Virus record (IMG/VR): IMGVR_UViG_3300024325_000003
Location: 1-39,754 of that record
Strand: one strand, 5' to 3'
Source of the DNA: a virus
Taxonomy: Duplodnaviria > Caudoviricetes
Length of the DNA stretch: 39,754 nt
Part shown: positions 1 to 39,754 of the stretch, piece after piece
How the letters are laid out: the number at the start of each line of letters is the position of its first letter
How positions within the stretch are numbered: the first letter of the stretch is position 1
Notes under the pieces: generated by a model
What the model was told of the DNA's origin: nothing
What the model saw: only the letters and a program-made list of their open reading frames with translations
The model's database searches: none
Position numbers and translations under genes: made by a program

Positions 1-127
1 TGTCGATATTAGCCTGGTTCCATCTTGATTGTTCTATAGGCTGGAATTTGCTGTAAAGATTGTCTAGCCATTGCCTTACGTTACCTTGTGAAGGCTCTAA
101 AGCATTGTCCCATGGTGGATAATAAAA
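1..127. repeat. Terminal direct repeat (circular overlap), copy 1
   Basis: 1-127 is identical to 39628-39754; 127 is a common maximal assembler k-mer; the portal ORF continues across the junction. Confidence 0.95.
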
Positions 128-133
128 AGACGT
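1..133 (-). CDS. Portal protein, N-terminal part (wraps the origin; probable ACG start at 133)
   Basis: GGAGG-cttt-t-ACG TCT TTT TAT TAT CCA CCA TGG... reads open and in frame with the 37619-39541 ORF (SFYYPPWDNALEPSQGNVRQWLDNLYSKF...). Confidence 0.8.
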
Positions 134-227
134 AAAAGCCTCCAACAAAAGAGCATTGGGTGAAAGCTAGAACATATAATAATTATTTTAATTATGCAAC
201 AATCGAATGTAAATCCGCTTTACATGA

Positions 228-1736
228 TTAGAATATACTAGTCCTAGGTCCGAATCGATCTTGTAAATAATCTTTAGGATTATGACCATCGCGATCATTA
301 CGTTGATTAGGCACGAGCATTAAACCAGTCGCTAAAGTTCTAAACGCATCTGCTCCATGTGATGCCCAATTGTGCAGAGGTTGAGATCGCCAGCATGCAT
401 TACGTTCGTCCCAATCCTTTTTGTAGTTGTCTAACGCTTTAATGCCTTTAGCACATTTAGATTCATCGAACCAACATCTATTTAGTATGCCGCGCACCGC
501 ATCTATACCAGGTATAATATCTGTCTTTTGAGCTGGTATTAGGTTAAAACCTAGTTTACGTGCTGATGCTTGTCTTGTCATACCACTACTATATTCATGA
601 ACCATAATATCATGTGGCGCAATATGCTTGTCATATACATAACCTTTAGATTTTACTATTCCAAGCCAATAAGCTAAAGACTCGCCACTTCCCTCATCAT
701 AATCTATCAACCTAATCTCTTTGCCGAAGCATTGGAAATACCATATTGAAGTGCTATCATTATAACCAAGGTCCCAAGCTGTATAAACGGGAATTTGTTC
801 ATCATATGGTACAAACCCAATACGCTTCTCAGCCCTAACTAGATTCATCTGACGTGCATAATATAATCCTTCGTTGGACACTTCCCAGCTTTCTTCTGGA
901 GTTGAAGGATATTCGCGCCTCATATCATCTTTTTGTGTCACCTCACGCGATATATACCAATTCTTTTGCTCTTCATCTAGCTTAATACCAACTCTAGATA
1001 AATGCTCGAAGTACTTTAATATATCTTCACTAGCTGGTAAGCATGATCCGATGCGATATGATGGCTCCAAATACCATGGGAAGAAGTGAAACTTAAAGTC
1101 TAGCTTAGATAATTTAGATTGCATCTGTTTGTTTTGTTGTGCTCGTTTACATATATCGTAAAAATAACCATCTCTTCCTTCAGCGGTTGATTCTATAAAT
1201 ACATATTGGCCAGGAGCAACAGTATTTAAAGACCCTGTAATTATTTCCTGAGCCTTATCTGGATACTTTGCGCATATCTTACCAAACTCTGATATATGTA
1301 AATATTGGAATGTACTAGATCTAAGAGATGTTCCCACGCGTATACTAGAACCGTTTGAGAACTTAAGCATGTTTGTGGTATCATTCTCGGCTGTTAATCT
1401 CTCTTTTATGATATCGGGTAAATTATCGTATGCGAACTTAACACGCCTAAACAACTGTTGAGAGTCTTCAAGTGTGTGTGCAATAATACCTGCGGACATA
1501 TTTGAGTTGAATAAACAGCGATCTAAGAATAGTAATGAAATGAATGTGCTCATACCAAGCTGACGGGCTTTAAGAATTATGTTGCAGTACCACATATCCT
1601 TATACAGCTGATCCTGAGCCCAATTTAATTTGAATTTAACTTTCTTTCCTTGTTTGTTTACAATATAGTATAGATGATTTATACGCCAATATGGGTCTTT
1701 GAATGCTTCTATGGCCTTATCTAGATCACTCTGCAT
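228..1736 (-). CDS. terL: Terminase large subunit
   Basis: Walker A-like ILKARQLGMST, Walker B YLHISE, ESTA coupling motif, nuclease AWDLG and HGADAFR. Confidence 0.95.
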   Translation of the reverse strand: MQSDLDKAIEAFKDPYWRINHLYYIVNKQGKKVKFKLNWAQDQLYKDMWYCNIILKARQLGMSTFISLLFLDRCLFNSNMSAGIIAHTLEDSQQLFRRVKFAYDNLPDIIKERLTAENDTTNMLKFSNGSSIRVGTSLRSSTFQYLHISEFGKICAKYPDKAQEIITGSLNTVAPGQYVFIESTAEGRDGYFYDICKRAQQNKQMQSKLSKLDFKFHFFPWYLEPSYRIGSCLPASEDILKYFEHLSRVGIKLDEEQKNWYISREVTQKDDMRREYPSTPEESWEVSNEGLYYARQMNLVRAEKRIGFVPYDEQIPVYTAWDLGYNDSTSIWYFQCFGKEIRLIDYDEGSGESLAYWLGIVKSKGYVYDKHIAPHDIMVHEYSSGMTRQASARKLGFNLIPAQKTDIIPGIDAVRGILNRCWFDESKCAKGIKALDNYKKDWDERNACWRSQPLHNWASHGADAFRTLATGLMLVPNQRNDRDGHNPKDYLQDRFGPRTSIF

Positions 1737-2160
1737 TATCTATTAAATCCCGGCTATCATCGTTAACAACGGTCATGATTACGCTGAGAGGGTCTTTTGC
1801 ATCTCCACTAATCTTATTCTCTTGCTTAGGAACCATTGCCCAATAATGCCCTAGTAATAGCTGAGCCATGTTATAATTCATTTTCTTTGCTAAAGATCCT
1901 TCCACGAGCATGCTTTTTTGTTTTGTAAGAGCCATATGATACGCGTCTCGAAACCTATCATTTTCTTTTGCCCATATCGAAAGTTTACTATCTGGATAAC
2001 CACGTTCATAAGCAAACTTCTCAAACCATAGAAATTTACCTTTTTCAAGCCATTCTTCCAAAGCATCAGCTTCGGCCTCAATAAATTCCTTAGTATACCT
2101 AAGTGGTCTTCCACCTTCACCATTTTTATTATATGGTTCATGTCCTTTCGGTGCTGGCAT
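1726..2160 (-). CDS. terS: Terminase small subunit (P22 gp3-like DNA packaging protein)
   Basis: Directly upstream of terL; MPAPKG...GGRPLRYT N-terminus typical of TerS; SD GAGGT. Confidence 0.85.
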   Translation of the reverse strand: MPAPKGHEPYNKNGEGGRPLRYTKEFIEAEADALEEWLEKGKFLWFEKFAYERGYPDSKLSIWAKENDRFRDAYHMALTKQKSMLVEGSLAKKMNYNMAQLLLGHYWAMVPKQENKISGDAKDPLSVIMTVVNDDSRDLIDNAE

Positions 2161-3067: not shown

Positions 3068-3071
3068 ATAT

Positions 3072-8123: not shown

Positions 8124-9524
8124 TTAATTCTCCTTATAAGATTTTGGTAAAAATTGTTCAAATCCCTCTTGAACTGGCAACATTGATTCAACTGGTATAG
8201 CTTCAAAATAGCGATCCGATTCAGCGTAATTACAAGTAAAAGGTATAGTTCTAACGTCACCTAAAATTCTATTTTTAGCGACTATGACATGAATTTGTCC
8301 AGGGCTATCATTTTTGTCATAATATTCTGGTCTATGAAGTAATATACATGCATCTGCATCTTCTTCAATTGAACCAGATTCTCTAAAATCAGAAAGTTGA
8401 GGTCGGTTATTTGCTCTTCCAGTTACTTCACGATTTAGCTGACAAAGACAAACAACAGGAATTTTCAAATCTTTAGCTAATGCCTGTAAAGCTTTTGATA
8501 TTTCACTAATTTTGGAATGCATATTTGGATGTTTATTTTGAGTAGAAATCTGAGATAAATGATCAATAAAAAGCACATCGATGTTGTATGCAAATTTCCA
8601 CCTTCTTGCGCGAGCACAAAGTTTTTCAATTGATAAACCTCCTTGATCATCAGGGTAAAAAGGAATATTGCACATTGAAGGATAGACCGAAGCAAACCTT
8701 TCCCATTCTTCTGAACTTAAATTTCCTTCTTCATAACGTGCATATTTAACCCCGATATGCATGCATACAAGCTTTGCCATTATTTTATCGGCGGGCATTT
8801 CAAGGGAAAAGAAACCAATTTTATATTTAAACATCATATTTCTAAATAGATTTATAATAAAAGTGGTCTTACCCATAGATGTACGGGCACCAATGTAATA
8901 AATACAACTATTTTGAAAAGCTCCAATACATTTATCTAATTTTGAAAATCCTGTTGACACACCTTCAAAAGTTGGCAATCCTTCTGAAAATCTTTTAATT
9001 CTCCATTCAAGATCTTTCATAAAAGAACCTTGTTTGGAAAATTTTTCCATCAAATCCCTGGCAGAATAAGAAGTAGAGGAGGTTAAACCTTGACATTGAA
9101 TCAATTTTTCTTGATGGGAGAATAGAATTTTCTCTGGTTCAGCGTCATCTTTGCATGCCGAAACAATTAATTCCTGTGCTGCATAAACGGATTTTCTAAG
9201 AAATGTAACTTTTTTTAATTGTTCTATGAATTCTTCATATGGCATTCCAGACCAACCAGTAGATTCCACCACAAAAACATATTCTTTTGGAAGTTCTTTT
9301 GTAAGTTTATGCTGATCAAGAAAATGTAAAATTGGAAAAGTTTCAATAGCTCGATCTTCTTGCACAATCAACTGAAAAGCCTTAAAAAGTATTTGATGTT
9401 TTGGATTAAAGAAATCCGAGCTATCTAATTTCGTTAAGCATTCATTTGCAGCATCAAAGCTTTGAAAACATGAAGCAAGAACTAGGACTTCAAGTCTTTC
9501 ATTAATTGGGAGAGGTTTTTGCAT
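8124..9524 (-). CDS. dnaB: Replicative DNA helicase, DnaB family
   Basis: GARTSMGKTT Walker A, FFSLEM, FIDHL, CQLNR, LSDFRESGSIEEDAD, IVAKNR. Confidence 0.96.
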   Translation of the reverse strand: MQKPLPINERLEVLVLASCFQSFDAANECLTKLDSSDFFNPKHQILFKAFQLIVQEDRAIETFPILHFLDQHKLTKELPKEYVFVVESTGWSGMPYEEFIEQLKKVTFLRKSVYAAQELIVSACKDDAEPEKILFSHQEKLIQCQGLTSSTSYSARDLMEKFSKQGSFMKDLEWRIKRFSEGLPTFEGVSTGFSKLDKCIGAFQNSCIYYIGARTSMGKTTFIINLFRNMMFKYKIGFFSLEMPADKIMAKLVCMHIGVKYARYEEGNLSSEEWERFASVYPSMCNIPFYPDDQGGLSIEKLCARARRWKFAYNIDVLFIDHLSQISTQNKHPNMHSKISEISKALQALAKDLKIPVVCLCQLNREVTGRANNRPQLSDFRESGSIEEDADACILLHRPEYYDKNDSPGQIHVIVAKNRILGDVRTIPFTCNYAESDRYFEAIPVESMLPVQEGFEQFLPKSYKEN

Positions 9525-11975: not shown

Positions 11976-12063
11976 CTGCGGATGCAAGGTATTGATTGTG
12001 TATAAGTCGACATGCATATGTTTGGCTTGTAAGGCTACATATAGCAAAGTTGGTGTAGCGTGA
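11959..12063 (+). CDS. Zn-ribbon microprotein (34 aa)
   Basis: MTACNNCGCKVLIVYKSTCICLACKATYSKVGVA; SD GAGGT; GTGA coupling. Confidence 0.55.
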   Translation: MTACNNCGCKVLIVYKSTCICLACKATYSKVGVA

Positions 12064-12632
12064 GTGAAATTATCCGTGAAGGCTTCGATAGAGTAACTTC
12101 AGTTTTGTCCTTTGCTTCTGGTATGGATAAGATCCCGCCAGAAGTATTAGCCAACGCTTGTGCAAGAGGCTCAGCTGTGCACAACGCAATTGATGGCATC
12201 ATTAAAAACCTTGGAGACTTCTCAGAACCAGAACACCAAGGTTATATTAATTCCTTCAAACTATGGGCTGCGGATAAGAAGTTATTGCCTGCCCCTCCTC
12301 GTTTCTATTGCGATGAGCTTATGATTACCGGGGAAATTGATTGTTATATTCCTCCTAATGTTCACCCTTTAGATCCTGGTTGGATTGTGGATTTTAAAAC
12401 TTCTGCAAAAGAAAGTAAAATGTGGTCCCTTCAGGCAACTGCTTATAGATATTTAGCTAATTTGAAAGGATATGAAATTCATGGATGTATATTCATAAAG
12501 CTTGATAAGAACGGATTATACCCTGAAATTTATGAATATGAATACGATTTTTCCTTATTCAAGGCATACCTAGACGTATACCGTCACAGCTTTAAAAATG
12601 GGAAAGAAGAAATTAACATCGAGGATTTATAA
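12060..12632 (+). CDS. PD-(D/E)XK exonuclease (RecB/lambda-exo-like)
   Basis: RVTSVL, RGSAVH, TGEID, IVDFKTS, LQATAY motifs. Confidence 0.85.
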   Translation: MSEIIREGFDRVTSVLSFASGMDKIPPEVLANACARGSAVHNAIDGIIKNLGDFSEPEHQGYINSFKLWAADKKLLPAPPRFYCDELMITGEIDCYIPPNVHPLDPGWIVDFKTSAKESKMWSLQATAYRYLANLKGYEIHGCIFIKLDKNGLYPEIYEYEYDFSLFKAYLDVYRHSFKNGKEEINIEDL

Positions 12633-12658
12633 AAAAGGCCGGGTAACAACTCCCGGCC
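12631..12658 (-). terminator. Rho-independent terminator on the minus strand
   Basis: GGCCGGG/CCCGGCC stem with the T6 tract only on the minus strand. Confidence 0.7.
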
Positions 12659-12692
12659 CAAGAACATTAACCAAAACAATAGGAGTCTATCT

Positions 12693-12782
12693 ATGAAAGT
12701 CATGCCGACCAGGATTCCCCAATCCATGCGTGATTATCCATTTGATGAGACATCCTTGATACTATTAACCAACACGATTTAA
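12693..12782 (+). CDS. Possible leader/micro-ORF (29 aa)
   Basis: AGGAG SD; MKVMPTRIPQSMRDYPFDETSLILLTNTI. Confidence 0.35.
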   Translation: MKVMPTRIPQSMRDYPFDETSLILLTNTI

Positions 12783-12795
12783 CACAAGGATTTTT

Positions 12796-13551
12796 ATGAC
12801 AGAAAATTTACCCTCTTTAATGCCATCTAATTCAGATTTTCAAGTCTTGCAGATGATTGCTGATAATGCTTCTAAATCTGGTTTATATGCTGGTGTTGGA
12901 AGTCAACAGAAAATATTAATGGTTCTTATGACTGCTAGAGAACTAGGAATTCCTCCTATGCAAGCTTTAAATGGTGGTATTCATAACATACAAGGAAAAG
13001 TAGAAATATCAGCAAGGCTTATGTGTTCAATGATTCGTCGTGCTGGTCATAATATAAACATTATTCAATGTGATTCTAAAGTATGTGTCCTTGAAGGAAA
13101 GCGTAAAGATAATGGCGATACTTTTAAGGCTCAATTTACGATTGAAGATGCTGCGAAAGCAGGATTATCTTCTAGAGATGTTTGGAAAAAATATACAGAA
13201 GATATGCTTTATAGTAGAGCTTTGAGTAGATTAGCTAGGAGATTATTTGCTGACGTTATAGGAACAAGCTATATTGAGGGTGAAATTAGTCTTGCTGAAG
13301 TGGATATAATCGATACAGGATTGAAAGACGATGCACCAATACCTGAAATTGAGATAGATCCAATGCCTAAATTATTAGAACTATGCCCAAGAGAGGATCA
13401 TGCAATGATTATTCAATACATTGATATGCTTGCTGACACATACAAGCAAAAGACAAAAGTTCAGCTTATACATAATTGTATAGAGAAGTTCGAGAAGTTT
13501 CAGGAGAATTTTAACACATGGAAGATCAATCAACTAGCGGAAGGTAAGTAA
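12796..13551 (+). CDS. recT: RecT/Red-beta-like ssDNA annealing recombinase
   Basis: ARELGIPPMQAL, FTIEDAAKAGL, WKKYTEDMLYSRALSRLAR; follows the exonuclease. Confidence 0.85.
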   Translation: MTENLPSLMPSNSDFQVLQMIADNASKSGLYAGVGSQQKILMVLMTARELGIPPMQALNGGIHNIQGKVEISARLMCSMIRRAGHNINIIQCDSKVCVLEGKRKDNGDTFKAQFTIEDAAKAGLSSRDVWKKYTEDMLYSRALSRLARRLFADVIGTSYIEGEISLAEVDIIDTGLKDDAPIPEIEIDPMPKLLELCPREDHAMIIQYIDMLADTYKQKTKVQLIHNCIEKFEKFQENFNTWKINQLAEGK

Positions 13552-13836
13552 TCAATCTTCCAAAACAGCCAAAATCTCATCTTCAGAGATAATCAAATAC
13601 TCGTCATTTGTATCATCTACAGTGACGGGTGTTCCTGCATACATCGGGAATATCACTTTATCATTTATTGCTACTTCCATAGGCATAACATAACCTTCTT
13701 TGGATAATCTCCCTGGACCACTTGCTTTAACATATCCGGTCTTTACCTTCTCATCAGATTTAAGAAGAAGTAAACTACCTTTGATATTTTCTTTGACATA
13801 TATTTTTACAAGTAATCGATTACCTAATGGTGACAT
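13552..13836 (-). CDS. groES: Co-chaperonin GroES (Cpn10)
   Basis: PLGNRLLVK, ASGPG, VAINDKVIFPMYAGTPV, EYLIISEDEILAV. Confidence 0.92.
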   Translation of the reverse strand: MSPLGNRLLVKIYVKENIKGSLLLLKSDEKVKTGYVKASGPGRLSKEGYVMPMEVAINDKVIFPMYAGTPVTVDDTNDEYLIISEDEILAVLED

Positions 13837-14200: not shown

Positions 14201-14236
14201 AACACCTCCAATGTAAAACGGCTTTACATCAAGATA

Positions 14237-14785: not shown

Positions 14786-14974
14786 ATGTTAAATTCATAT
14801 ATACCATACATACCAATTACTGAAAAAGAATATATAGAAATTAATTTAAATAATTGCTGCATGGAATATTCTGCTCTAGATAAGGAAGAGAAAAAAGGCT
14901 CGAAGGGAGCATACATTCAAGGGAAATTACATGGTTATGGCGATATTTATTGGAAATATTACGCTCAGGATTAA
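14786..14974 (+). CDS. Hypothetical protein (62 aa)
   Basis: SD TAAGGAG. Confidence 0.55.
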   Translation: MLNSYIPYIPITEKEYIEINLNNCCMEYSALDKEEKKGSKGAYIQGKLHGYGDIYWKYYAQD

Positions 14975-16293: not shown

Positions 16294-16316
16294 TTTTTAT
16301 CCCATTTAATATATTT

Positions 16317-16826
16317 TTACACAATTGTCCATGTTCCTATTCCTGATAGGTCATGCCAGGTATTATCTGATGGCTTAAAAACTAAATCAAGAATTGAACC
16401 TAATGCAGTGCTAGTCGCACTTCCACCAGAAGATGAAAGTTGATTGCTAACTTGAATAAATTGACCTAGAGGTGCCAAAACAACTACTGGTGAAGCTGTA
16501 TCAACATAGATAATACAAGAATTTCCAATAGTAGGAGCAGGAACAAAAGGTAAAGTAGCCGTTAATGCAGCATTACAAAAGTAACCATTTCCGACTTGTA
16601 TTGAAAAGTCGGCATTCTTTTCGGACCAAGCAAAACCCTCATTTGTAACTGTAACAGTAACTGTCCCTGTTCCTACATTACCTGTTGTTGCTGCTCCAAT
16701 ACCACCTGCTACAATTAATTTATTAGCCAATGGTACTACTTGAGCACCATCATCGGTTTGGAACACTGTAGGTACACTAGGAGGTACAGGGCCTTGAGAA
16801 GTATTGTTTAAACCGGCTTGGCTCAT
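16317..16826 (-). CDS. Virion/tail protein (MSQAG family)
   Basis: Located in the tail operon; beta-rich. Confidence 0.6.
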   Translation of the reverse strand: MSQAGLNNTSQGPVPPSVPTVFQTDDGAQVVPLANKLIVAGGIGAATTGNVGTGTVTVTVTNEGFAWSEKNADFSIQVGNGYFCNAALTATLPFVPAPTIGNSCIIYVDTASPVVVLAPLGQFIQVSNQLSSSGGSATSTALGSILDLVFKPSDNTWHDLSGIGTWTIV

Positions 16827-16833
16827 AAGTATC

Positions 16834-17433: not shown

Positions 17434-17441
17434 TATTAAAC

Positions 17442-17777: not shown

Positions 17778-17778
17778 C

Positions 17779-18642: not shown

Positions 18643-18646
18643 AAAA

Positions 18647-18679: not shown

Positions 18680-18697
18680 TAATTAATTGGAACACCT

Positions 18698-22259: not shown

Positions 22260-22260
22260 T

Positions 22261-22479: not shown

Positions 22480-22480
22480 T

Positions 22481-22561
22481 ATGTTTGATTTATTTATATT
22501 AGCTTGTGGAACTGGAGTTATTGGATATTTGCTTTACCATGTTTTTGACTTTTCTTCATAG
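22481..22561 (+). CDS. Hydrophobic micropeptide (26 aa)
   Basis: MFDLFILACGTGVIGYLLYHVFDFSS; SD GGAG. Confidence 0.4.
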   Translation: MFDLFILACGTGVIGYLLYHVFDFSS

Positions 22562-25081: not shown

Positions 25082-25089
25082 AATATCTC

Positions 25090-25704
25090 CTACATTCCAC
25101 CAAACGCTGATGAACCTAATTTAGCTCCCGCTAATGCACCTGCGGGTCCTCCGGCAAAGAAACCAGCTGCACCACCGCCTAGAGCACCTAATGCGCCACC
25201 CCAGCCACCTAATGCTTGTTTCTGTTTTTGTGGTTTTTCAACAAGGAAGTTTTCTTGCGGTCTTTGATTCAATAATTGATTACTAAAATTCATCATATCG
25301 CTTATAGCTCCACGTTGAAGCTCTTGACGCTGTGATTGTAATTGTTGAGCGAAATCTGATGCTGCTTGATTTGCTGTATTTTGAAATCCGGAGCTATTTC
25401 TAGCACCAGTACCACCCATTCCACTAAACCTGGATGCGAGTCCACCCTGAAGACCTGCAAATTGTTTCAATGCCGGTGCTTCCATCTGATTGAACGTTTC
25501 TTCATCGCCACCCGCTAATTTAGATAGATAACTTTCAGGGCCTAATTGACCGAACATCTGTTGAAATAATTGCATCTGCTCTGGAGTGAAATTATTAAGA
25601 GTTCCTTTTTTATAACCCTTAGGAATCTTTTCTTTTGGCATTCCTGTACGACCTGAAGAACTCATTGAACCTGTAGGACCCATACTGCCTGTGAGTGATG
25701 ACAT
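25090..25704 (-). CDS. Putative ejection/pilot protein (P22 gp7-like position)
   Basis: Q-rich body and Gly/Ala-rich C-terminus GGPAGALAG; ATG at 25704 after GAGGT. Confidence 0.65.
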   Translation of the reverse strand: MSSLTGSMGPTGSMSSSGRTGMPKEKIPKGYKKGTLNNFTPEQMQLFQQMFGQLGPESYLSKLAGGDEETFNQMEAPALKQFAGLQGGLASRFSGMGGTGARNSSGFQNTANQAASDFAQQLQSQRQELQRGAISDMMNFSNQLLNQRPQENFLVEKPQKQKQALGGWGGALGALGGGAAGFFAGGPAGALAGAKLGSSAFGGM

Positions 25705-25734
25705 AAGCACCTCGTTTTTTTTTATTTTATCATA

Positions 25735-26202
25735 TTATGGGTTTGATAACCATTCTAACAATATAAATCCCGTTAAATTTCCTCTAGTACCACCAGGAGT
25801 AAAAATAATTTGATTTGGACTTACAAAAATTCCTAAATTATTTGTTGGTACTCCCCCATCCACATATGGAATAGGAAGATAATTCACTCCATCAAATCCT
25901 ATACCAGTAATCTTTGTAAATGTCGTCAAAGAATTAAATTTTATACCATGTGATATCGGATTAAAATTTGTAAATTGAAACACCTGTCTTAAGGTTTGCT
26001 GTCTTTGATTTTTGGATATAAACCATGATTCTCCAGTTATTGCAGGTCTGTTTATAGGAAATATTCCAATCGTTCTTGCATTTACTGTATTTGCTATATC
26101 AATATAAGCTTTATTTAACTCAACAGACAATTCCTTAGCTTCTGTCGGAAAATCCCTTGTGGTACGTATATAGGATACTTGATTGACAACATTTGAACTC
26201 AT
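25735..26202 (-). CDS. Virion structural protein
   Basis: Coupled to the nozzle gene. Confidence 0.6.
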   Translation of the reverse strand: MSSNVVNQVSYIRTTRDFPTEAKELSVELNKAYIDIANTVNARTIGIFPINRPAITGESWFISKNQRQQTLRQVFQFTNFNPISHGIKFNSLTTFTKITGIGFDGVNYLPIPYVDGGVPTNNLGIFVSPNQIIFTPGGTRGNLTGFILLEWLSNP

Positions 26203-29200
26203 GATAACATCTGAGAAGGACTCAGCTCCATATTAAATCCATGTAATTCGATTTCATCAAATTGAATTTCTGCAGAAACTAATGTTGCAAACCCACCTAA
26301 TAAATAAGCATCAAATCCTATTGAGTCAACTCCAATGGTCACTGTTGTAAGATCAGAAGCTAATACAACATAAGTATTTGTATTTAATTGAGTCATTCCC
26401 AATATACCATTAATAGTTACTAAACTTCCCGCTGGAAAACCACCTAAACATGTAAGTACACAAGGATTATCTTGTGTTGCGCCAGTAATAGAAAAAGTAT
26501 TGCCCGGACTTAATGTACGCATTTGTGTATCCGACATTGTAAATCCTAATTGGATAGTATCTCCGATTAAAGAAGTATTTACTCTATGCCAAATTTGTTG
26601 CTGCTGGATAGCTGTGGGCATTTGAAGATTATTATTTGCAGGTGTCAATCCTATATTTGCACTCTCAGGACATGTATAAAGTACTGTGCTATAAATAAGA
26701 GAATTATTTATCGATCCAGGTTCTGGAACAATATTTCCTAAATTATAAGAAAGATCGGCATTTTGATTTAAATATATTTGTAATTGAATTTGTCCTTCTT
26801 CTGTTGTTGTGAGAAGATATTGCTGTGCTCCAATTCTTGTTTTTCTTCCCATATCCCAAGCAGCAGGAAATTGTTTCGTTTGAATTAGTGGAACATACAT
26901 TCTCTGAATTTGTCCACCACCAAAATAGGTTCCTGTACCTACTATAGCTGGATTTAATTGAAATGTATTTGTCGTGGTTACTCCTACAGAAAAAACTCGA
27001 CCATTTATTTCCCAACCAACTGTTCCCAAAGCATTATGGATACTTATATAATCGCCTGTATTCAAGCAATGATTTATTGATGTAATTACATTTCCGGAAA
27101 TGCTTTGAATTGTTAATGAATTAGCTTCGTCTGTGCCTCCTAAATCGGTTTCACCAGCTCGTATGAAAACAAAACCTTGCTGATTTCCAGCAATAATATC
27201 TGGTTGAAATACTGTAGATGAACCTGAATTCCATGGACTATTCCATGACGACCATTTGGGTTGTGGTAAACTTGCACCAACTGTTGCCCAAGTAATTCCA
27301 GTAGAAAATTTAAATTGACCATATGTTGTATAAGTTTCTCTGAAAACAGCCCATGAGTTATCTCTATAATTATATTGAAGCGTTTGAGTAGGGAAGTTAT
27401 AATTTATCTCAGCAAGAGGATAGGTAAAATAAACCCATTCATTAATAAAATCTCTTTGTGCCGTTACTCTTTCAGAACCATTATTTGTCAATTTAATCTC
27501 GAAAACTTCATCAGGAATTTCTAGATCAAATCTTTCTGTTCCTACTTGATTAGAAATAACAAATCCTCTATTTCCTCTAGTCATTACACCTTGATCTAGA
27601 TTAATTGCTGAAAATGTACTTGCAGAACCTAATTCAGAATTTGTAATAAAGAAATTGAAAGGAACAACATCATTTCCTGTAAATACCATTTTTGTTTGGG
27701 TTGTAGCCAAACCAACCATCAAAACGTCTTGATTTGGGGAAACTGTTAAAATAGGCTGCTGAATTCCTATAGTTTGAAATCCACCAAATCCGGTGCTATC
27801 TTCAACATATGCAACCGGTGAAGCAATTTGATTTGTAGGCACTAATATAGGTGTAAAAACTGTTGTAGCTGATAGTGGATCACCAGTAAATGAAGCGGTA
27901 TAATAAGGCGTTCCGTTTTGACTATAAATGACAGTATCTTGTAAATATATTGGAACCCCAGTTGATGCCTGTACTACAGGTCCAAAAAAGCATAATCTAT
28001 CCTTAAATGGAACAATCATTCTTGCCCCAGCTAAGTAATATTGTTTTGGTGGTAGACCTGATATGGAAAATGCCTGACTTGATAATGGTGGCATAAAATT
28101 AACCCACCCATTACCTGGTGTTAATGTTGGGGATGGTGGGTTTCCTAATGTAGGATCTCCATCATACCATCTAATACAATCAATATTTACATTTGATCTA
28201 TTAGTTAGATATTGGACTATACCACCATTAATATAAGCACCAGCTAGTGTAGCTTGAGGAAATACTGCATTAAAACTATTGGCATTTATCACTCCACCAG
28301 CGGGAATATATCCTGTTTGAAAATTTATTCCTGAAATACCATTCACTTCATTAACAAATATAAAATCACCATCTACTAATCCATGATTAGTAATCACGAT
28401 TTGAGCGACTTGGGCTAAAATAGCAGGAATTGCTTCAATTAATCTGAACTGCAGTCCTATTGTTGTTCCAGTAAAGGGAACATCAATTCCATTCGTTACC
28501 CAAAATGCATTTTCATAATTTGTAGACCAAAACTGCTGATAATTTTGACCGTTCCAAGTTGTAGGTGTCCAATTCGCTTTTTGTGTATAACCCGGTGGTG
28601 TACCTGTAGGAGGGTTTTTATAAAAACTAACATCATAACTTGTTGCTGGCACAGAAGTTGTAATATTATAAGAATATTTTGTATCAAACCCTAATGTTCC
28701 TGGGAATTGGGTAGAATTTAAAATTAAATCTTCTAATCCCATAACAGGAAGCGAAGGATAGTAATTAAAAGTGCCAGAAACAGCATTTACTCCTCCACCT
28801 GCTATTACAATTGCACCAGTGGAATAATTTATACTGCTACCAACATCCAAAACAGCATTTCTAAATATAGTACCATCACGATTTGGATCGGTATAGGTTG
28901 CAGCTGCAATCGTTAAATTTAAAGTACCTGGAACGATATTTGCGTTAGTTTGTAATGCAAAACCTGTAATTAGGTTACCTGCTCCACCAACTAAATTAAA
29001 AGATGCAATTGATCCATAGGAAGGATTATTAGAATTGAAAAATCTTTGCAATATAACTAGAAGTGATGTTCCACGTTTTCTTTTGACTCGACCACGCCAT
29101 TGATAGGCATTCAATAATTTAGGAAAAGATTCATTATCAATATTAAATGGCGTGACATCGTTGCGAAGTCCTTTATTGAACGGTCCTACAACAAGCTTTT

Positions 29201-29207
29201 GTCCCAT
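26199..29207 (-). CDS. Tail nozzle / DNA stabilisation protein (P22 gp10/T7 gp12-like) with FCCH-like inserts
   Basis: 1002 aa; GRVKRKRG N-terminal motif; PFKDRL, LQYNYRDNSWAVF; follows the adaptor. Confidence 0.7.
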   Translation of the reverse strand: MGQKLVVGPFNKGLRNDVTPFNIDNESFPKLLNAYQWRGRVKRKRGTSLLVILQRFFNSNNPSYGSIASFNLVGGAGNLITGFALQTNANIVPGTLNLTIAAATYTDPNRDGTIFRNAVLDVGSSINYSTGAIVIAGGGVNAVSGTFNYYPSLPVMGLEDLILNSTQFPGTLGFDTKYSYNITTSVPATSYDVSFYKNPPTGTPPGYTQKANWTPTTWNGQNYQQFWSTNYENAFWVTNGIDVPFTGTTIGLQFRLIEAIPAILAQVAQIVITNHGLVDGDFIFVNEVNGISGINFQTGYIPAGGVINANSFNAVFPQATLAGAYINGGIVQYLTNRSNVNIDCIRWYDGDPTLGNPPSPTLTPGNGWVNFMPPLSSQAFSISGLPPKQYYLAGARMIVPFKDRLCFFGPVVQASTGVPIYLQDTVIYSQNGTPYYTASFTGDPLSATTVFTPILVPTNQIASPVAYVEDSTGFGGFQTIGIQQPILTVSPNQDVLMVGLATTQTKMVFTGNDVVPFNFFITNSELGSASTFSAINLDQGVMTRGNRGFVISNQVGTERFDLEIPDEVFEIKLTNNGSERVTAQRDFINEWVYFTYPLAEINYNFPTQTLQYNYRDNSWAVFRETYTTYGQFKFSTGITWATVGASLPQPKWSSWNSPWNSGSSTVFQPDIIAGNQQGFVFIRAGETDLGGTDEANSLTIQSISGNVITSINHCLNTGDYISIHNALGTVGWEINGRVFSVGVTTTNTFQLNPAIVGTGTYFGGGQIQRMYVPLIQTKQFPAAWDMGRKTRIGAQQYLLTTTEEGQIQLQIYLNQNADLSYNLGNIVPEPGSINNSLIYSTVLYTCPESANIGLTPANNNLQMPTAIQQQQIWHRVNTSLIGDTIQLGFTMSDTQMRTLSPGNTFSITGATQDNPCVLTCLGGFPAGSLVTINGILGMTQLNTNTYVVLASDLTTVTIGVDSIGFDAYLLGGFATLVSAEIQFDEIELHGFNMELSPSQMLS

Positions 29208-29795
29208 TTAATTACCTATCGCTACCCAATAAAAATTTTTAGTGGCATTAGAGTTATTAAATTGAGTGATATGGAATTTAGTTTTATCTACTATATTCGC
29301 TTGATATGATTGACCCGCAGCTGTAACTGTCTGTGGTGTAATATTTACTACGAAAGCATTATTTGGAAAATTTGGTGTGAAAGCTACATCTTGACCGGCT
29401 ATCCCTGCAGCAACTGAAGCTGAGCCCCATTGAACAATAATTCCAGAGAAAAAAGCCCAACCATTATTTGCTGCTGCATTATTACCTGTTATTTGTTCAC
29501 CAGGTGAACCAGCGGCTGTTGAGGTTGATTTATACCATAATTGATTATCCGTTCCAAAATTTGTTGTAGATGTAGAAGTGTAAAATTGACCTGCCGCTGT
29601 ATTTGCAACTATACTTTTGGCCTGTGGAATCATATGAATTAACTTGTGCCATCCACCATTATTCAAATTAAATGATACATGATCTTCTGCTAATATTAGA
29701 TCAGTTGAATTTGTATTTACTTCCATCTTAGGTTGATCTTGAGATGGATCATTTGGTGCATTAGGAATATTATCGTAGTAAGTAAAATTTGTCAT
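29208..29795 (-). CDS. Tail-associated protein with gp53-like/H-type lectin C-terminal domain
   Basis: GIIVQWG...FTPNFPNNAFVV...FYWVAIGN. Confidence 0.7.
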   Translation of the reverse strand: MTNFTYYDNIPNAPNDPSQDQPKMEVNTNSTDLILAEDHVSFNLNNGGWHKLIHMIPQAKSIVANTAAGQFYTSTSTTNFGTDNQLWYKSTSTAAGSPGEQITGNNAAANNGWAFFSGIIVQWGSASVAAGIAGQDVAFTPNFPNNAFVVNITPQTVTAAGQSYQANIVDKTKFHITQFNNSNATKNFYWVAIGN

Positions 29796-29803
29796 ATTAT
29801 CCC

Positions 29804-31009
29804 TTAAAAAGCGTTTCCACCCTGACTAGAATAACCTGTAGAACCTTGCTGCATTCCTTGGCTATAGATAGTTTGGGTGCGTGTACTTGTAAATTGTCTT
29901 TGTGAGCGTTTCCAAACCAATATCTCTTGTTCTCTAAATAATGGTTCGTAAAACTGAAATTGTTCTATATCTCCTGTATCACTCAATATCTTCCTTGCAG
30001 CACCACGGGCTATATATTCTGACATATAACCAAATTGAACGGCCTGTCCTGTAGTTAGGAATGCTGCTGGAGTTAGGTAGCAATCCATTTCAATAAGATA
30101 TTGGGAATCTGGGATATTTCTTAATGTGATCGTATTGTTTTCAAATAATATTCCACGTGGAAGTCCTGATTGGAAGAATAGGCATTGACCGTTAATGTTC
30201 ATTCCCTGTCCGACTGCCGCAGGAAAATTCACAACAGCTGTTCCAGTCATATAATTCACAGTATTATTTGTGGTACTATATGATCCTCCAAATCCTGTAT
30301 AACCATTTGGAGCTGTCCCTGGAACCATTAACAATCCATAATTGGGTTGTTTATTACCAACACCATCTATCAGAAATTGTCCTGAGTCCTGCACAACTAA
30401 AGGATTGTTAAATTGATCTTGGGTCGTGAAATAAACCGCAGGACTTATACTCGTGCTTGATATATTGAAATTTAGATCTGTTCCAAAAATTGGATCTTGA
30501 TTTGCCCCTGAAGCTATAATACCGCTAACATCAACGTGACCTCGCAATATTGCATTAACCGGTGTTGTAATTGGTGTAGAATTGAATGGTGCTACCGGAA
30601 AGGTCAATGTATAAGGGCCAGGACTTCCATTTCCTACAGCCATTACAGGAGCTGTTTGAGTGATATTTGGAAATGTATTAAAGAAATTTCTTCTTTGTGT
30701 TTCAAAATACACACTAACACCATCGACATAACAAGGCTCCATGAATCCTTGATAAACAGGGTAACTATTTATACCCTGATTACCTTGTTCAACTTGTAGA
30801 TCGTATAATGGCATATTATATCGATCTACTCCAGGAACAGTCTGAAATGAATATGTAGTCTTAAGATCAAATAATTGTATACGCGCGTCAACATCGTTAA
30901 TCCAGAAACGATTGATATAATCTATAATTAGATCATCCGTTACTTGCGCGTTCGATGGACTCTTAATTATTCTTCTAACATATGTGACGACGTCGCTTAA
31001 AATATTGAT
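29804..31009 (-). CDS. Head-tail adaptor / tail tubular protein A-like (probable ATC start)
   Basis: LSDVVTYVRRII...IIDYINRF, FQTVPGVDRY, EYIARGAARKIL; GAGG-6 nt-ATC at 31009. Confidence 0.7.
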   Translation of the reverse strand: MNILSDVVTYVRRIIKSPSNAQVTDDLIIDYINRFWINDVDARIQLFDLKTTYSFQTVPGVDRYNMPLYDLQVEQGNQGINSYPVYQGFMEPCYVDGVSVYFETQRRNFFNTFPNITQTAPVMAVGNGSPGPYTLTFPVAPFNSTPITTPVNAILRGHVDVSGIIASGANQDPIFGTDLNFNISSTSISPAVYFTTQDQFNNPLVVQDSGQFLIDGVGNKQPNYGLLMVPGTAPNGYTGFGGSYSTTNNTVNYMTGTAVVNFPAAVGQGMNINGQCLFFQSGLPRGILFENNTITLRNIPDSQYLIEMDCYLTPAAFLTTGQAVQFGYMSEYIARGAARKILSDTGDIEQFQFYEPLFREQEILVWKRSQRQFTSTRTQTIYSQGMQQGSTGYSSQGGNAF

Positions 31010-31010
31010 A

Positions 31011-31466
31011 CTACACCTCAACCGTTCTTGGTGATTTTCTTGAATGACATGCTTGACACAACCATATCACATTTAAAGGTTTGTTATAATCTTCATGATG
31101 ACCATGTGGTTTACACTCTACATTACATTGTGAACATATATTTGGTCTCATAATCTTTGCTGAATTGATTGCATATCTCAATTTTGCATTTGCGTTTCTT
31201 TTTTCTTTATTTTCGTCGCGCCATCTTTTGTTTTTTTCGCTTATCTTTTCTTTATTATTACTCGCCCAATTTCGATGGTGTATTCTGTTTTTTTCGAACC
31301 TATTTGGATCGGAAAGTCTCCTCAAAGATGCGCTTAGAGATATTTTTTCTTTGTTATTCTTTCTATATTCTTCTCTTATCTTTAAGACTTTTTCCCGATT
31401 CTTATAATAATAGTTTCTAGTATATTCTCTTTTTTTTTCAATTTCATCATTTACATATTGTTTCAT
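31011..31466 (-). CDS. HNH-like endonuclease
   Basis: CSQC...HGHHEDYNKPLNVIWLCQACH; basic helical N-terminus. Confidence 0.8.
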   Translation of the reverse strand: MKQYVNDEIEKKREYTRNYYYKNREKVLKIREEYRKNNKEKISLSASLRRLSDPNRFEKNRIHHRNWASNNKEKISEKNKRWRDENKEKRNANAKLRYAINSAKIMRPNICSQCNVECKPHGHHEDYNKPLNVIWLCQACHSRKSPRTVEV

Positions 31467-31523: not shown

Positions 31524-32105
31524 TCAGAATGTGTTCGCGCCCATAAATACTGATCTTTTCTTACTTACTGGCAATGCATCTAGCCTTTGTACTGTTGTGT
31601 CAACGGCCATTGTACCATAATACTGACCCATACCATCGCTACCAGCCATTCTATTTTCTTGCATTGTCAATCTATGGTAGAACTTACGCTTAATTTGCTC
31701 TGCAAGATATCTTGGACCCCATACAGGCTTATTTACCGGTACTTTCCACTCTTCCGCAGGCATTCCACCAAATGGCCGAGTCCAGATCTCGATAGACTCA
31801 CCAATAATTTCTTTATTCTCTGCAATAAAATTGACATATTCCTTCGCAAACTCATAGTCTTTACGATAAGCTTCATTGAATTTATCCCTACAACTAATGG
31901 TTTTGATTGGCTTTAGGTAAATATCTTTCATCTTATCCAGATCAGCATTAGCGATCTTAGTTTGAGGCTCTAAGTCAGGTTTGGGAGTTAAATCCATGCG
32001 ATCTTTTGTCATAGCTTTAACTTCATCATCAAACTTCTCAAATTGCTTCTCAGCTTTGTCTAATTCTTTTTCTGCTAATGAATTCTTTGCTTCAGGTCTT
32101 GCCAT
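31524..32105 (-). CDS. Conserved-looking hypothetical protein in the head module
   Basis: SD GAGGT; position after the capsid-associated genes. Confidence 0.65.
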   Translation of the reverse strand: MARPEAKNSLAEKELDKAEKQFEKFDDEVKAMTKDRMDLTPKPDLEPQTKIANADLDKMKDIYLKPIKTISCRDKFNEAYRKDYEFAKEYVNFIAENKEIIGESIEIWTRPFGGMPAEEWKVPVNKPVWGPRYLAEQIKRKFYHRLTMQENRMAGSDGMGQYYGTMAVDTTVQRLDALPVSKKRSVFMGANTF

Positions 32106-32808: not shown

Positions 32809-32816
32809 ATTTATGT

Positions 32817-33948: not shown

Positions 33949-34929
33949 TTACACTCCTAAGTTTGATTGTCTCGTACAGAGAAGTTGTCTAATAGCTGTA
34001 TCCTGTGTGATTGCCTGCGCTTGTGCAAACTTCACCGCTAGAGTAGCGTTTTGGGCCAACATACCACTGTAGTATGGGTCACGATAAATCAAATTCATGC
34101 TATAACCATCTTGATTAATATGCGTAATAGCTTGCTTACCAAGAACGGTATTGTAATACAAATCATTCAAAGTACCTGAACTATTAGCAACTGCATTACG
34201 GGCTACAGGAGCTTCTGAGCTGGTTAGAATACGGATGTTATATACAGAACCATATTCAGAAGGTAGAGCAGACGCATTTGTAGGATAATTCCACTGATTG
34301 AGGAATCCAGATCCAACAAGAGCATCGAAATCGCTTTGTAGTTCAGTTGAGGACAACATGAAATATGCTGAACGAACTGGACCTGTACCGAAACGATCCA
34401 TACCTTCAATACCTGTCATAAACTTGTAGGCATTGTTTGTATCAAGTGTAGTAGCTACTAAAGAGAAATCGGATACGCCCAAATTTGTTGGGTTAAATCC
34501 ATTGCTTCCACCACCTGCATTGATCTCAGATGCGGCAGAAACAATATAGTCTCTCAAAATTAAATCTTCAGCTTGACGCATAGCAACAGCTAAACGCTCT
34601 GATACCCATGCTAATACGCCTTCTTGGTCTTGCAAAATAACTTGTTCGTTAATAATGCAACCTGTACCGAAGAATGCCATCTGAGCATCGATAATATCAC
34701 GCTGTGGAACTTGTGCTGGGGGATCTATACCCGAGTTACCCAACTGTACTGTTGGTGGTTGTAGTGCGCGTGGGCGCATGAATCTGCAAGTTGTACCGCC
34801 GTTTGCTGGCATAGATACCTTGTCGCAGACTGTAATGTAATTCATTGTTGGCGTTGGAACATACAACATAGCAGGCGCTAAGCTCTGCAGAATCATTGGT
34901 CCCAAATTGCCGGTTGTCGTAATCGACAT
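33949..34929 (-). CDS. Major capsid protein (HK97 fold, N4 gp56-like family)
   Basis: MPANGGTTCRFMR, EYGSVYNIR, DPY..MLAQ motifs; follows the scaffold; 326 aa. Confidence 0.85.
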   Translation of the reverse strand: MSITTTGNLGPMILQSLAPAMLYVPTPTMNYITVCDKVSMPANGGTTCRFMRPRALQPPTVQLGNSGIDPPAQVPQRDIIDAQMAFFGTGCIINEQVILQDQEGVLAWVSERLAVAMRQAEDLILRDYIVSAASEINAGGGSNGFNPTNLGVSDFSLVATTLDTNNAYKFMTGIEGMDRFGTGPVRSAYFMLSSTELQSDFDALVGSGFLNQWNYPTNASALPSEYGSVYNIRILTSSEAPVARNAVANSSGTLNDLYYNTVLGKQAITHINQDGYSMNLIYRDPYYSGMLAQNATLAVKFAQAQAITQDTAIRQLLCTRQSNLGV

Positions 34930-36122: not shown

Positions 36123-36641
36123 ATGAGACTTAACATTTTAGATGCACATGATAGATTGAAAGATCTCAAGAAGAAAGAATTTAGCATAGGTGAATGTTGC
36201 CAAGATCTAATTAATCAAAGGCCATTTGGTGAACATGCGTTTTACATATTTGCTCACCCAAGAACTGATGACGATGGTGTTACTAAAAGAATGATATGGC
36301 AACCGAGGCTTACTAAGCCAAAAGCCCAATCCAACTCAATGCTATTTAAAGCGTATCCTGGAAGTGATTCAATCAAAGTTATATGGATGCTTCCACCTCA
36401 TGAAATGTGGGATCAATATGAGAAAGGATTACTTACAGAGAATGAAACGGTTAGCAATAGCATTTATGATTACAAAAACAATCGGGCTAAACTTGAAATG
36501 AAAGAAGATGATGATCTACCAGATTCAAAGGTAGATGCTATCTATAGAGATTTAGCGTATGCAGCTAGAGAAAAGAAAGTAAAAGAAGCATCTAATAAAG
36601 TGATAGATATTTACAACAACAAGGGAATATTACGAATATGA
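36123..36641 (+). CDS. Hypothetical protein (172 aa), divergent within the head module
   Basis: SD GAGGT; globular composition (IWQPRLTKP, WMLPP). Confidence 0.75.
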   Translation: MRLNILDAHDRLKDLKKKEFSIGECCQDLINQRPFGEHAFYIFAHPRTDDDGVTKRMIWQPRLTKPKAQSNSMLFKAYPGSDSIKVIWMLPPHEMWDQYEKGLLTENETVSNSIYDYKNNRAKLEMKEDDDLPDSKVDAIYRDLAYAAREKKVKEASNKVIDIYNNKGILRI

Positions 36642-37260: not shown

Positions 37261-37341
37261 TTTTACCCCTTAAAAATGGGACTGTACTTCCGGAGGTGTT
37301 CCACTAGAATTCAATGGCTCCTTGTCGCCTTGGTCCCTAAA

Positions 37342-37605
37342 TTAGTTTCTATAGTTAGGCTGCTTCATTGGATGAGCTTTGACTTTCTTAGAGCCTTCCA
37401 TCTGTCCAGCCTTAATAGCTTCTGTAGTATCTTCATACTTCATAACGCTTCCTACGCCTTGAGCTGAACTCTCATCTTTTGTCTTATGTGGTCCATCTGG
37501 AAATCTTGAATCTTTCCCAGGCTTTCCTGCCCAAAAAGAATGATCGTCAATACGTTGTCCGCCACTCTTGAATGAACCTTTGCTTGAATCATCATGTTGC
37601 TTCAT
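37342..37605 (-). CDS. Small basic hydrophilic protein
   Basis: SD GAGGT; immediately after the portal. Confidence 0.7.
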   Translation of the reverse strand: MKQHDDSSKGSFKSGGQRIDDHSFWAGKPGKDSRFPDGPHKTKDESSAQGVGSVMKYEDTTEAIKAGQMEGSKKVKAHPMKQPNYRN

Positions 37606-37618
37606 ATAAACCTCTTGG

Positions 37619-39754
37619 TTATCTCATGGCGCCTTGTGGAGCCTGTTGTTGATTACTACCTTGCATATTAGCATTTCCTAATATTTGCTGCACGAATTCG
37701 TTTGACATCGCTGTACGTTTAGCATCTACTTTTTCCACGTCTTCTTGCTGTTGTTGTTGAAAGTTTACACTATCGAGCTGATTCATCTTAAGCATTGTCT
37801 CAATCTCACCGTATTTAGCTATGACATCTATCATCTTCTCAAGGGCTTCCATCTTCGCTTTTGTTGCCATAGCTCTATTCTGCGTGATCTCGGACAATCT
37901 TTCTTCAAATAGACCAATATCAGCCTCGGCTCTTCCATGTCTTTCACGAGCTGTTGCGAGATTACTTGTTGCCTTACTCATTAATTCCTGCAACTTAGCA
38001 TGTTCAAAGGCATGTGCAACTTGCATTTGTTCGTTCTGAACTTGTGATGCTTGCTGTTCTTGTTGCTCAAGATATTTAACGATCTCGCCTTTTCCTTGAA
38101 TATTCATATCCTTGATAATCATACTAGCAGGTAATACTTCTCTTCCAAACGCAGCATTTATATCCATCATTTGCTGTGCTTGTAAATTCCTTTGAGTAGG
38201 TGTTTCAAGTCCTTCTTCTACAACTGTTTTATATTTAGCAAAGATACGACTAAAGAAATGAGGAGAAATTTGATTAGCTTCCATTCCTATCATCATAGCA
38301 ACTTTTTCAGCATTCCAATTTTGAAGGACTATCTGCAACATACGCTCGCCAAGTATCTTAAGAGATTTATCCCATTGGTCGAAATACTTTTGGAATACCA
38401 TTAAGTTTGCAGCTTGCTTAAGTAATACTGTAAGGCTTGATGTTTGTTTATCTTGTTGCCCAGCCCAATTCTCAAGATTGATCCCAGATACATTATAGAT
38501 TAGATCTGCCATCTGTTGGGCTAATGCCATATCAGATTCAGGAACTCCGCTTGGGATAATCTTCTCAACGTCAGACATATCATATCCTTCGTTAACTATT
38601 ACATCCCATCCTTGACCTGATTTCTTAAGATTGTCTTCATTAGCAACAGCCCCCACCTTACGTTTCCAACCAGCATTTATTGTCGCAGCAGTGATATCGT
38701 TGTTGGTAATAACTTTGTAGTTAAATAGAAACTGAGGTGATCTCATTGGAAATACAAGCGATCTAGATCTTAAATCAAATTGATTGATATGAGGGTCATA
38801 GTTCCAGAAATTAGGAATAAAAGGACACTCTGGACCATCCCATAGAGGGTTATCACCTTGGAACATCAATTGATCATTTAATACCACAGCTAGTTTCCAG
38901 CATGAAGTATCAACAGTTACTTCTTCCATATCCTCAATATGATATAGAATTTGTTCTAGTTGATCATCACCACCTGCAAAGTCGAAGAATTGCTTTCTCT
39001 TCGCTGAATATAATCTCTTCTTCTTCTTATGCCACTTATACCAAACATAGCTCAAAACCATTAAATCATTGCGAGCCATGTTATAGTTCTCAGGAAGGAA
39101 ATAGAAATTACCATATCTCTGTGGAGTTCCGGCCATTGTAGATACATTTAATGTTTTGTCTGGAAATCTAGCTTGTGCTTCTTTCTTGCTAATATATTCC
39201 TGGCACCAAACAAACTGAGCATCACTCATATCAGGATTTCTGAAATATGGATCAACGAGAAATGAATTATATTCCCACACCTTTAATTTAAGCTGTCCTT
39301 GAGCAGGATCGTCACCAGTGAAGTCTAGATATGGCTGTAATAAATTCATGCCCGCCACGGCTGCTAATTCGCAGGATTTAGAGAATTGCTCATCAATCCC
39401 CTCTTTTTGGCATACGTTTTTAATAAGCCTTGTATATTCATCAGTAGTCTGAGGATCTGCTCCATCTGCTGCCTGATATACAATTGATTTGCGATGCTGT
39501 CTTTGATATCCCGTAACCATATTAACAGGTTGCTGAACCAAATTGAAATAGTATTGCTGACTGGTTAATCCAGGGCTGAATGTAAAATTACGATTGATAA
39601 ACGACTGATTTCCCGCATAGAATAGCGTGTCGATATTAGCCTGGTTCCATCTTGATTGTTCTATAGGCTGGAATTTGCTGTAAAGATTGTCTAGCCATTG
39701 CCTTACGTTACCTTGTGAAGGCTCTAAAGCATTGTCCCATGGTGGATAATAAAA
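37619..39754 (-). CDS. Portal protein (P22 gp1-like; continues across the origin, 713 aa total)
   Basis: Follows terL on the circle; PVNMVTGYQRQHR, DMSDAQF, Q-rich barrel C-terminus. Confidence 0.9.
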   Translation of the reverse strand, partial: FYYPPWDNALEPSQGNVRQWLDNLYSKFQPIEQSRWNQANIDTLFYAGNQSFINRNFTFSPGLTSQQYYFNLVQQPVNMVTGYQRQHRKSIVYQAADGADPQTTDEYTRLIKNVCQKEGIDEQFSKSCELAAVAGMNLLQPYLDFTGDDPAQGQLKLKVWEYNSFLVDPYFRNPDMSDAQFVWCQEYISKKEAQARFPDKTLNVSTMAGTPQRYGNFYFLPENYNMARNDLMVLSYVWYKWHKKKKRLYSAKRKQFFDFAGGDDQLEQILYHIEDMEEVTVDTSCWKLAVVLNDQLMFQGDNPLWDGPECPFIPNFWNYDPHINQFDLRSRSLVFPMRSPQFLFNYKVITNNDITAATINAGWKRKVGAVANEDNLKKSGQGWDVIVNEGYDMSDVEKIIPSGVPESDMALAQQMADLIYNVSGINLENWAGQQDKQTSSLTVLLKQAANLMVFQKYFDQWDKSLKILGERMLQIVLQNWNAEKVAMMIGMEANQISPHFFSRIFAKYKTVVEEGLETPTQRNLQAQQMMDINAAFGREVLPASMIIKDMNIQGKGEIVKYLEQQEQQASQVQNEQMQVAHAFEHAKLQELMSKATSNLATARERHGRAEADIGLFEERLSEITQNRAMATKAKMEALEKMIDVIAKYGEIETMLKMNQLDSVNFQQQQQEDVEKVDAKRTAMSNEFVQQILGNANMQGSNQQQAPQGAMR
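39628..39754. repeat. Terminal direct repeat (circular overlap), copy 2
   Basis: Identical to 1-127. Confidence 0.95.

Follow-up and report, generated by a model that had tools for sequence, protein, structure and literature searches.

How a tailed phage leaves its host when no endolysin can be recognised in its genome, and which bacterium such a phage would infect, are the questions raised by a DNA stretch of 39,754 nt, IMG/VR record IMGVR_UViG_3300024325_000003 (Duplodnaviria; Caudoviricetes), referred to below, at its full length, as the window. An earlier note, made from the sequence alone, had described it as a complete podovirus-like genome without a recognisable endolysin and had guessed at a host with a minimal or missing peptidoglycan sacculus, possibly in the Chlamydiae. 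The analysis favours, on balance, a podovirus-type phage with a P22-type portal and an N4-gp56-type capsid, which belongs to a large uncultured family, encodes no recognisable hydrolase, has a host in Chlamydiota whose wall is likely reduced, and is released by membrane-acting proteins only.

The genome is complete and densely coding, as had been claimed. Positions 1-127 are identical to 39628-39754, and this 127-nt terminal overlap closes a circle of 39,627 bp. IMG/VR classes the record as having direct terminal repeats and being 100 % complete, and the portal frame can be read across the junction as an open reading frame (ORF) of 713 aa starting from the ACG codon at 133. An annotation of 73 genes covers 95.1 % of the circle and no gap exceeds 220 nt, so there is no room between genes for an ordinary endolysin. 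The description of the genome as AT-rich (GC content of 36.5 %) was also correct, and three Caudoviricetes hallmarks were matched: an HK97-type major capsid protein of the N4-gp56 family (TIGR04387, above cut-off), a P22-like portal (P22_portal) and a terminase (phrog_2).

Profile searches for a peptidoglycan hydrolase were negative throughout. Among 77 window ORFs compared with PHROGs and Pfam, none matched a family of lysozymes, amidases, peptidases or transglycosylases, and no peptidoglycan hydrolase was detected in 66 window ORFs compared with NCBIfam, nor in 44 extra stop-to-stop frames of at least 75 codons or eight micro-ORFs compared with Pfam. Six-frame searches with SLT and Phage_lysozyme, positive in 8 and 3 of 14 control genomes, respectively, were negative in the window, so that the absence of a recognisable endolysin stood up to all of these approaches. 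To extend the screen to the family, the ORFs of the window were clustered with those of 26 near-complete relatives and of five sets of phage-like contigs from Chlamydiota metagenome-assembled genomes (MAGs), 2,129 in all. With Pfam no lysin was found in 369 proteins, made up of representatives of 105 shared clusters and of 264 singletons with at least 95 aa, nor did one emerge from a PHROG scan of 112 proteins, mostly those without a Pfam match. A PHROG 'protease' detected in two relatives (L262:6055-6486) proved to be a prohibitin/SPFH-like membrane protein and not a hydrolase. This SPFH/prohibitin-like protein (L300:5031-5462 and L262:6055-6486) is 73 % identical over 113 aa to the product of a terminase-island gene in Chlamydiota (L378).

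In IMG/VR, 271 relatives of the capsid protein were confirmed, with identities of 84-95 % for the 80 best, and the protein relatives number 1,011. Neither the major capsid protein (MCP) nor the portal gave a tblastn match among 50,697 GenBank phage records. Among sequencing runs, the window was well represented only in the one that may be its source, with small shares in three others. In the literature covered, to which supplements and most subscription journals did not belong, neither the family nor the palindrome presented below was found to have been described. Interrupted capsid genes, seen as split matches, were observed in L085, L089, L090 and L094.

The guess of a chlamydial host gained support from four sides: the terminase large subunit (TerL) tree, a palindrome, the DnaB helicase and an integrated relative. 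TerL has DNA matches in many Chlamydiota genomes, some of them on contigs of 2.1-2.9 Mb, and the protein is 58-68 % identical to 13 Chlamydiota TerLs versus 35-46 % to six proteobacterial plasmid or prophage TerLs. Five phage TerLs and four TerLs of chlamydial islands form one group in the tree (99/100), and this group is nested among the other island TerLs. No capsid or portal match was present within about 10 kb in eight TerL islands checked. Two dissimilar TerL types occur in the phage family, the island-related type of the window in 5 of 27 close genomes and the other in 24 genome sets, which suggests that terminases have been swapped with the chlamydial islands. A putative TerL on a genomic island of Protochlamydia is mentioned in the accessible text of PMC5010888. 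RecT homologues of about 60 % identity also lie on Chlamydiota contigs. One such contig, G065:C2 (132 kb; L422, L424, L425), carries a module of helix-turn-helix (HTH), transmembrane (TM) plus coil and RecT (59 %) genes together with DnaB and a fibre-like gene related to the phage family; the 72 kb examined contained no capsid or portal match.

The 19-bp palindrome was derived as the commonest palindrome among the collected phage loci and then tested. The window holds two copies with one mismatch each, compared with a mean of 0.0 in 300 shuffles, and with up to two mismatches the 19-mer was found in 25 of 49 relatives (reversed control, 0/49). Its exact 15-bp core was present in 51 of 101 Chlamydiota genomes versus 1/101 in Pseudomonadota, 2/101 in Bacteroidota and 1/41 in the order of a Legionellaceae MAG. 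Most positive genomes have 1-5 copies of the core, and 25-92 exact copies were counted in four Chlamydiota genomes (G059, G076, G089 and G105). In the relatives the palindrome is found both between and within genes. At 185-225 of the window one arm doubles as a promoter-like match (TTTACA-17-TAAAAT) aimed at the portal gene.

Compared with the 25 top-scoring DnaBs of Chlamydiota, the DnaB helicase reached 234-250 bits; with five from other phyla it reached 161-171 bits, and the best phage and plasmid matches listed lay at 159-189 bits. In the tree a branch with 100/100 support placed the window DnaB together with the chlamydial ones, a placement weakened by the identity of 32-35 %, the use of top hits as the chlamydial set, the five outgroup sequences and the very long phage branch. 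An integrated relative was recognised on G290:C1, where a related phage, recognised by its portal (25 %), its MCP (24 %) and homologues of fibre and HTH genes, lies between the chlamydial core genes ribH/ribAB/brkB and kdsB-pyrG-ruvX. Of the genes on either side, pyrG is 90 % and brkB 86 % identical to its counterpart in Chlamydiota G049, and their spacing of about 57 kb in G290 versus about 15 kb in G049 indicates an insertion of approximately 42 kb. No lysin match was found in this element.

The earlier note had also linked two protein families to chlamydial-type assemblies. The link held for TM+coil proteins ending in HGRLC, genes for which were found in 3 of 120 Chlamydiota genomes versus 0 of 56 Pseudomonadota and, twice among the Chlamydiota genomes (including G103), between housekeeping genes. 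For the MSQAG proteins a single weak match in 180 Chlamydiota genomes was obtained. Among the relatives, L267:16233-16715 contains the C-terminal domain of the chlamydial plasmid protein Pgp3 (Pfam Chlam_vir, E 1.3e-7). Two others encode U-box/RING-domain proteins with a eukaryote-like ubiquitin-ligase domain (L299:3763-4803 and L265:10357-11370), which would fit a host living inside eukaryotic cells.

The host could instead be another small-genome or intracellular lineage of a shared protist niche, such as Babelota, Patescibacteria or Rickettsiales, with the chlamydial links arising by gene exchange. Such a host would agree with the scattered MAG labels of the close relatives, as MCPs of 71-100 % identity were found in GTDB on 14 MAG contigs from various phyla, including Patescibacteria and Legionellaceae, with one labelled Chlamydiia; this taxonomy was discarded as host evidence because the contigs examined were phage-only. 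It would also agree with the outcome of spacer matching, a check proposed in the earlier note. The 245 distinct spacers collected around Cas1 in 11 of 400 Chlamydiota genomes, from arrays of clustered regularly interspaced short palindromic repeats (CRISPR), had 6-7 mismatches in 32 at best, the same as shuffles, and five short DNA matches to Chlamydiota lay outside arrays. The palindrome controls were drawn from Pseudomonadota, Bacteroidota and the order of a Legionellaceae MAG, and the TerL comparison covered proteobacterial homologues. Together with the MAG labels and the spacers, several further results weigh against assigning the phage to Chlamydiota: capsid homologues were present in 8 of 401 Chlamydiota genomes and were mostly distant; the palindrome is missing in 24 of 49 relatives, in the G290 element and in those islands and further phage contigs of chlamydial MAGs that were checked; and the G290 element is distant, has a split TerL and yielded no integrase. 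Nevertheless, four separate kinds of link lead to one phylum and the palindrome is rare in three control groups. Judged from these comparisons, the host very probably belongs to Chlamydiota, likely to the environmental chlamydiae, and one from another lineage is improbable.

The candidates for release are small membrane proteins and a lipoprotein. Directly after the second palindrome copy come genes for a TM peptide of 34 aa, a lipoprotein of 68 aa and GroES. The single lipoprotein that had been reported (13844-14050) was confirmed by its lipobox pattern, while the count of at least six tiny TM peptides was not clearly reached: four to five can be counted, two strongly hydrophobic (14096-14200 and 22089-22259), two moderately (22261-22479 and 22481-22561) and one weakly (7567-7722), a stricter script giving five. 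ORF 22261-22479, with the HGRLC motif, is holin-like by anatomy, its single TM helix at the N-terminus being accompanied by a coiled coil and a charged tail; no holin or spanin family was matched. Besides the window, 19 of 32 genome sets encode HGRLC-type proteins, with up to seven per genome, often as tandem paralogues. In the mechanism proposed, the HGRLC proteins and the TM peptides would permeabilise the inner membrane and the small lipoprotein would help to breach the outer membrane, while a ring-only or absent sacculus would offer no barrier or would be opened by host amidases. The joint operation of these steps appears slightly more probable than its failure.

Two core genes, 36123-36641 and 31524-32105, had been named in the earlier note as places where a hydrolase fold might be found, and the fold-level check was confined to them. 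Seven residues of 36123-36641 (H9, D10, R11, H45, R47, S72 and D131) are invariant in the 27 close genomes. Its model is a confident alpha/beta structure with a predicted local distance difference test score (pLDDT) of 86.6, which resembles uncharacterised phage proteins only. Foldseek gave no PDB match, VIA aligned the C-terminal helix only (best Z 5.2), and sequence searches of the ESM Atlas and PDB were empty. For 31524-32105 (pLDDT 75.3) Foldseek likewise gave no PDB match, VIA gave no clear one (best Z 4.8), and the PDB sequence search was again empty; the protein is likely structural. No hydrolase was recognised in PDB comparisons of either model, which does not in itself prove the folds new. 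The gene 36123-36641 is the main residual candidate for a lysin of unrecognised fold or for a regulator.

With respect to release, several points count against a membrane-only exit. Chlamydial walls range from a full sacculus in Protochlamydia, through a ring in C. trachomatis, to none isolated from Simkania, according to the accessible text of PMC5814848, and the complete sacculus of Protochlamydia would stand in the way. No patatin or other lytic enzyme takes the place of the endolysin. The lipoprotein gene is not core, a strict filter being positive in 8 of 32 genome sets. Furthermore, the family scan used one member per cluster, leaving out non-representative members and singletons below 95 aa, so that the fusion of a lytic domain to some other cluster member could escape; the lysin screen was run without matched ordinary podoviruses as a sensitivity control; and the fold-level check was limited to the two genes named above. 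The wall of a chlamydial host might be degraded by an enzyme whose fold is not recognised, or its synthesis blocked by an inhibitor of that kind, the best candidates being 36123-36641 and a small TM peptide. There is a precedent for the latter in E of phiX174, a single-gene lysis protein which inhibits MraY. The conservation and confident model of 36123-36641, and its resemblance to uncharacterised phage proteins alone, are compatible with this, as is the full, chemically modified sacculus of some chlamydiae (PMC5814848, accessible text). However, the alignment of the gene shows no hydrophobic signal for export, no holin gene lies beside it, its small family comprises 141 representatives, and homologues were found neither in the G290 prophage nor in phage contigs of chlamydial MAGs. 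An enzyme or inhibitor of this kind is considered rather unlikely, and a hidden lysin of unrecognised fold is likely to be absent. The phage could also dispense with active lysis in its chlamydial host, persisting as a free circle partitioned through host-type palindromes and leaving when the bacterium or the eukaryotic cell breaks. No integrase match in the window, the ParB_N gene at 2400-2882, and palindrome copies lying within tens of kb of each other in several closed chlamydial chromosomes would suit such a life. Half of the relatives, however, have no palindrome, the ParB_N protein is short and adjoins the terminase, and holin-like proteins are widespread in the family; passive exit is given little credence. 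Membrane-only release remains the preferred explanation.

Endolysin-less tailed phages of intracellular bacteria are already known. The statement that tailed phages of ordinary bacteria need an endolysin meets an exception in the literature: phage WO of Wolbachia (Wovirus; Symbioviridae has been proposed as its family) is a tailed dsDNA phage without an endolysin-holin-spanin system according to the accessible text of PMC9203015. The phage described here is likewise tailed with dsDNA. WO has an obligate intracellular host (PMC9203015), and the host links found here lead to Chlamydiota. A small holin-like protein of WO, in which a single TM helix at the N-terminus is combined with a coiled coil at the C-terminus and a charged tail (PMC9203015), has the anatomy of 22261-22479. 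In contrast, the patatin phospholipase, ankyrin genes, serine recombinase and PAAR described for WO in the same source were not matched in the window with PHROGs or Pfam, and no Pfam match to its eukaryotic association module was found there; a P22-type portal and an N4-gp56 capsid were found instead. The window therefore lacks the Wovirus features tested. It resembles P22/SU10-like podoviruses in its P22-like portal (PF16510), its terminase pair, a putative adaptor (match below cut-off) and an arrangement of genes that would suit nozzle and ejection proteins, and differs from them in that no lysozyme or spanin cassette was found in the window. Members of Chlamydiamicrovirus are ssDNA Microviridae. 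They are small and tail-less, unlike the 39.6-kb genome with portal and terminase described here, which does not match a small ssDNA genome with a Microviridae capsid. These phages infect Chlamydiota and were isolated on classical Chlamydia (PMC5010888, accessible text). Unclassified viruses have been predicted by software to infect Chlamydiales (PMC12644861, accessible text), and a word search of the accessible text of PMC8242063 and PMC9723776 showed no tailed phage; nothing further came from PMC5654357.

The Chlamydiota terminase islands share the TerS-TerL clade of the window, but no capsid, portal or tail match was found in the islands checked, and the window genome would be the kind of complete helper that they need. 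A wider proposal can be put forward only tentatively: a worldwide family of Chlamydiota tailed phages which dropped muralytic enzymes, acquired a new exit route (HGRLC paralogues and lipoprotein, or 36123-36641), borrowed the host palindrome and serves as helper for the terminase islands. The helper function, if true, would constitute an unrecognised DNA-transfer route in Chlamydiota. An abundant tailed-phage family would account for the CRISPR arrays and terminase islands of environmental chlamydiae and would offer a route of gene flow in an obligate intracellular phylum. The family-wide lack of an endolysin would make the chlamydial wall state testable from the phage side, and the family supplies candidates for a wall-independent lysis mechanism.

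The features of the window are collected in Table 1.

Table 1. Features of the 39,754-nt window
Feature	Position	Strand	Remarks
Palindrome copy 1, one mismatch	207..225		Between TerL and portal; arm overlaps -35-like hexamer facing portal
Terminase large subunit	228..1736	-	phrog_2 E 6e-31
Terminase small subunit	1726..2160	-	33-40 % homologues adjoin island TerLs
ParB_N gene	2400-2882		Pfam; short protein, adjoins terminase
DnaB helicase	8124..9524	-	Best scores against chlamydial DnaB among those compared
Exonuclease and RecT-like annealase	12060..13551	+	PHROG profiles
GroES co-chaperonin	13552..13836	-	Cpn10 E 5e-18
Predicted lipoprotein, 68 aa	13844..14050	-	Lipobox pattern; no Pfam match; candidate spanin-like outer-membrane component
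Single-TM peptide, 34 aa	14096..14200	-	Strong ribosome-binding site; no Pfam match; candidate lysis membrane protein
Palindrome copy 2, one mismatch	14211..14229		Directly upstream of TM-peptide/lipoprotein/GroES run
Putative fibre/spike-like genes, including MSQAG paralogues and 840-aa repeat protein	14971..21220	-	One HNH gene inserted; roles suggested by repeats and position
Three small membrane ORFs: 56-aa TM, 72-aa TM+coiled coil (HGRLC), 26-aa TM	22089..22561	+	Antisense to virion genes
Three genes at probable podovirus ejection-protein position	22518..25710	-	Lytic domain not detected by profiles
Putative short-tail module	25735..31021	-	Conserved 155-aa virion-type protein, putative 1002-aa nozzle-like protein, Gp53-like_C fibre protein, SU10-type adaptor (below cut-off)
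Core gene, capsid-adaptor interval	31524..32105	-	27/27 close genomes; model without PDB match
Major capsid protein, N4-gp56 family	33949..34929	-	TIGR04387 79 bits, cut-off 60
Core orphan gene	36123..36641	+	27/27 close genomes; antisense to scaffold-like gene in 25/25 loci with both
Portal, P22-like	37619..39754	-	P22_portal (PF16510) E 3.5e-55; frame runs over junction to predicted ACG start, window 133

Profiles assigned TerS/TerL, the P22-like portal, the N4-gp56 capsid, DnaB, RecT, an exonuclease, GroES and four HNH-type endonucleases. No integrase was matched in the window with PHROGs or Pfam, so that a lytic life cycle or maintenance as a free circle is probable. The same profiles matched no tape measure or sheath among the window ORFs, and the phrog_584 'major tail' matches were weak and confined to an FCCH-type domain. 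The E1_FCCH domain of Pfam was observed in three virion-module proteins (26199-29207 and 32114-33947). The SU10_adaptor match (E 3e-5) was below cut-off, the ESM Atlas returned unnamed viral clusters for 25735-26202, and a PDB sequence search with two ejection-like genes gave no match.

The housekeeping-sigma-type promoters reported in the earlier note could not be told from chance: 74 Sigma70-like promoters were found in region 1-20000 versus 79.8 ± 8.5 in shuffles. Three small ORFs (4213-4368, 14237-14323 and 14525-14689) are very lysine-rich, one of them being a DUF6496 member, and possibly encode DNA-binding core proteins. At the place equivalent to the portal start, 31 related loci have TTG (11), ATT (8), ATG (8), ACG (2), ATC (1) or GTG (1), most of them preceded by a clear ribosome-binding site, and weak start codons may be a family-wide means of keeping portal levels low.

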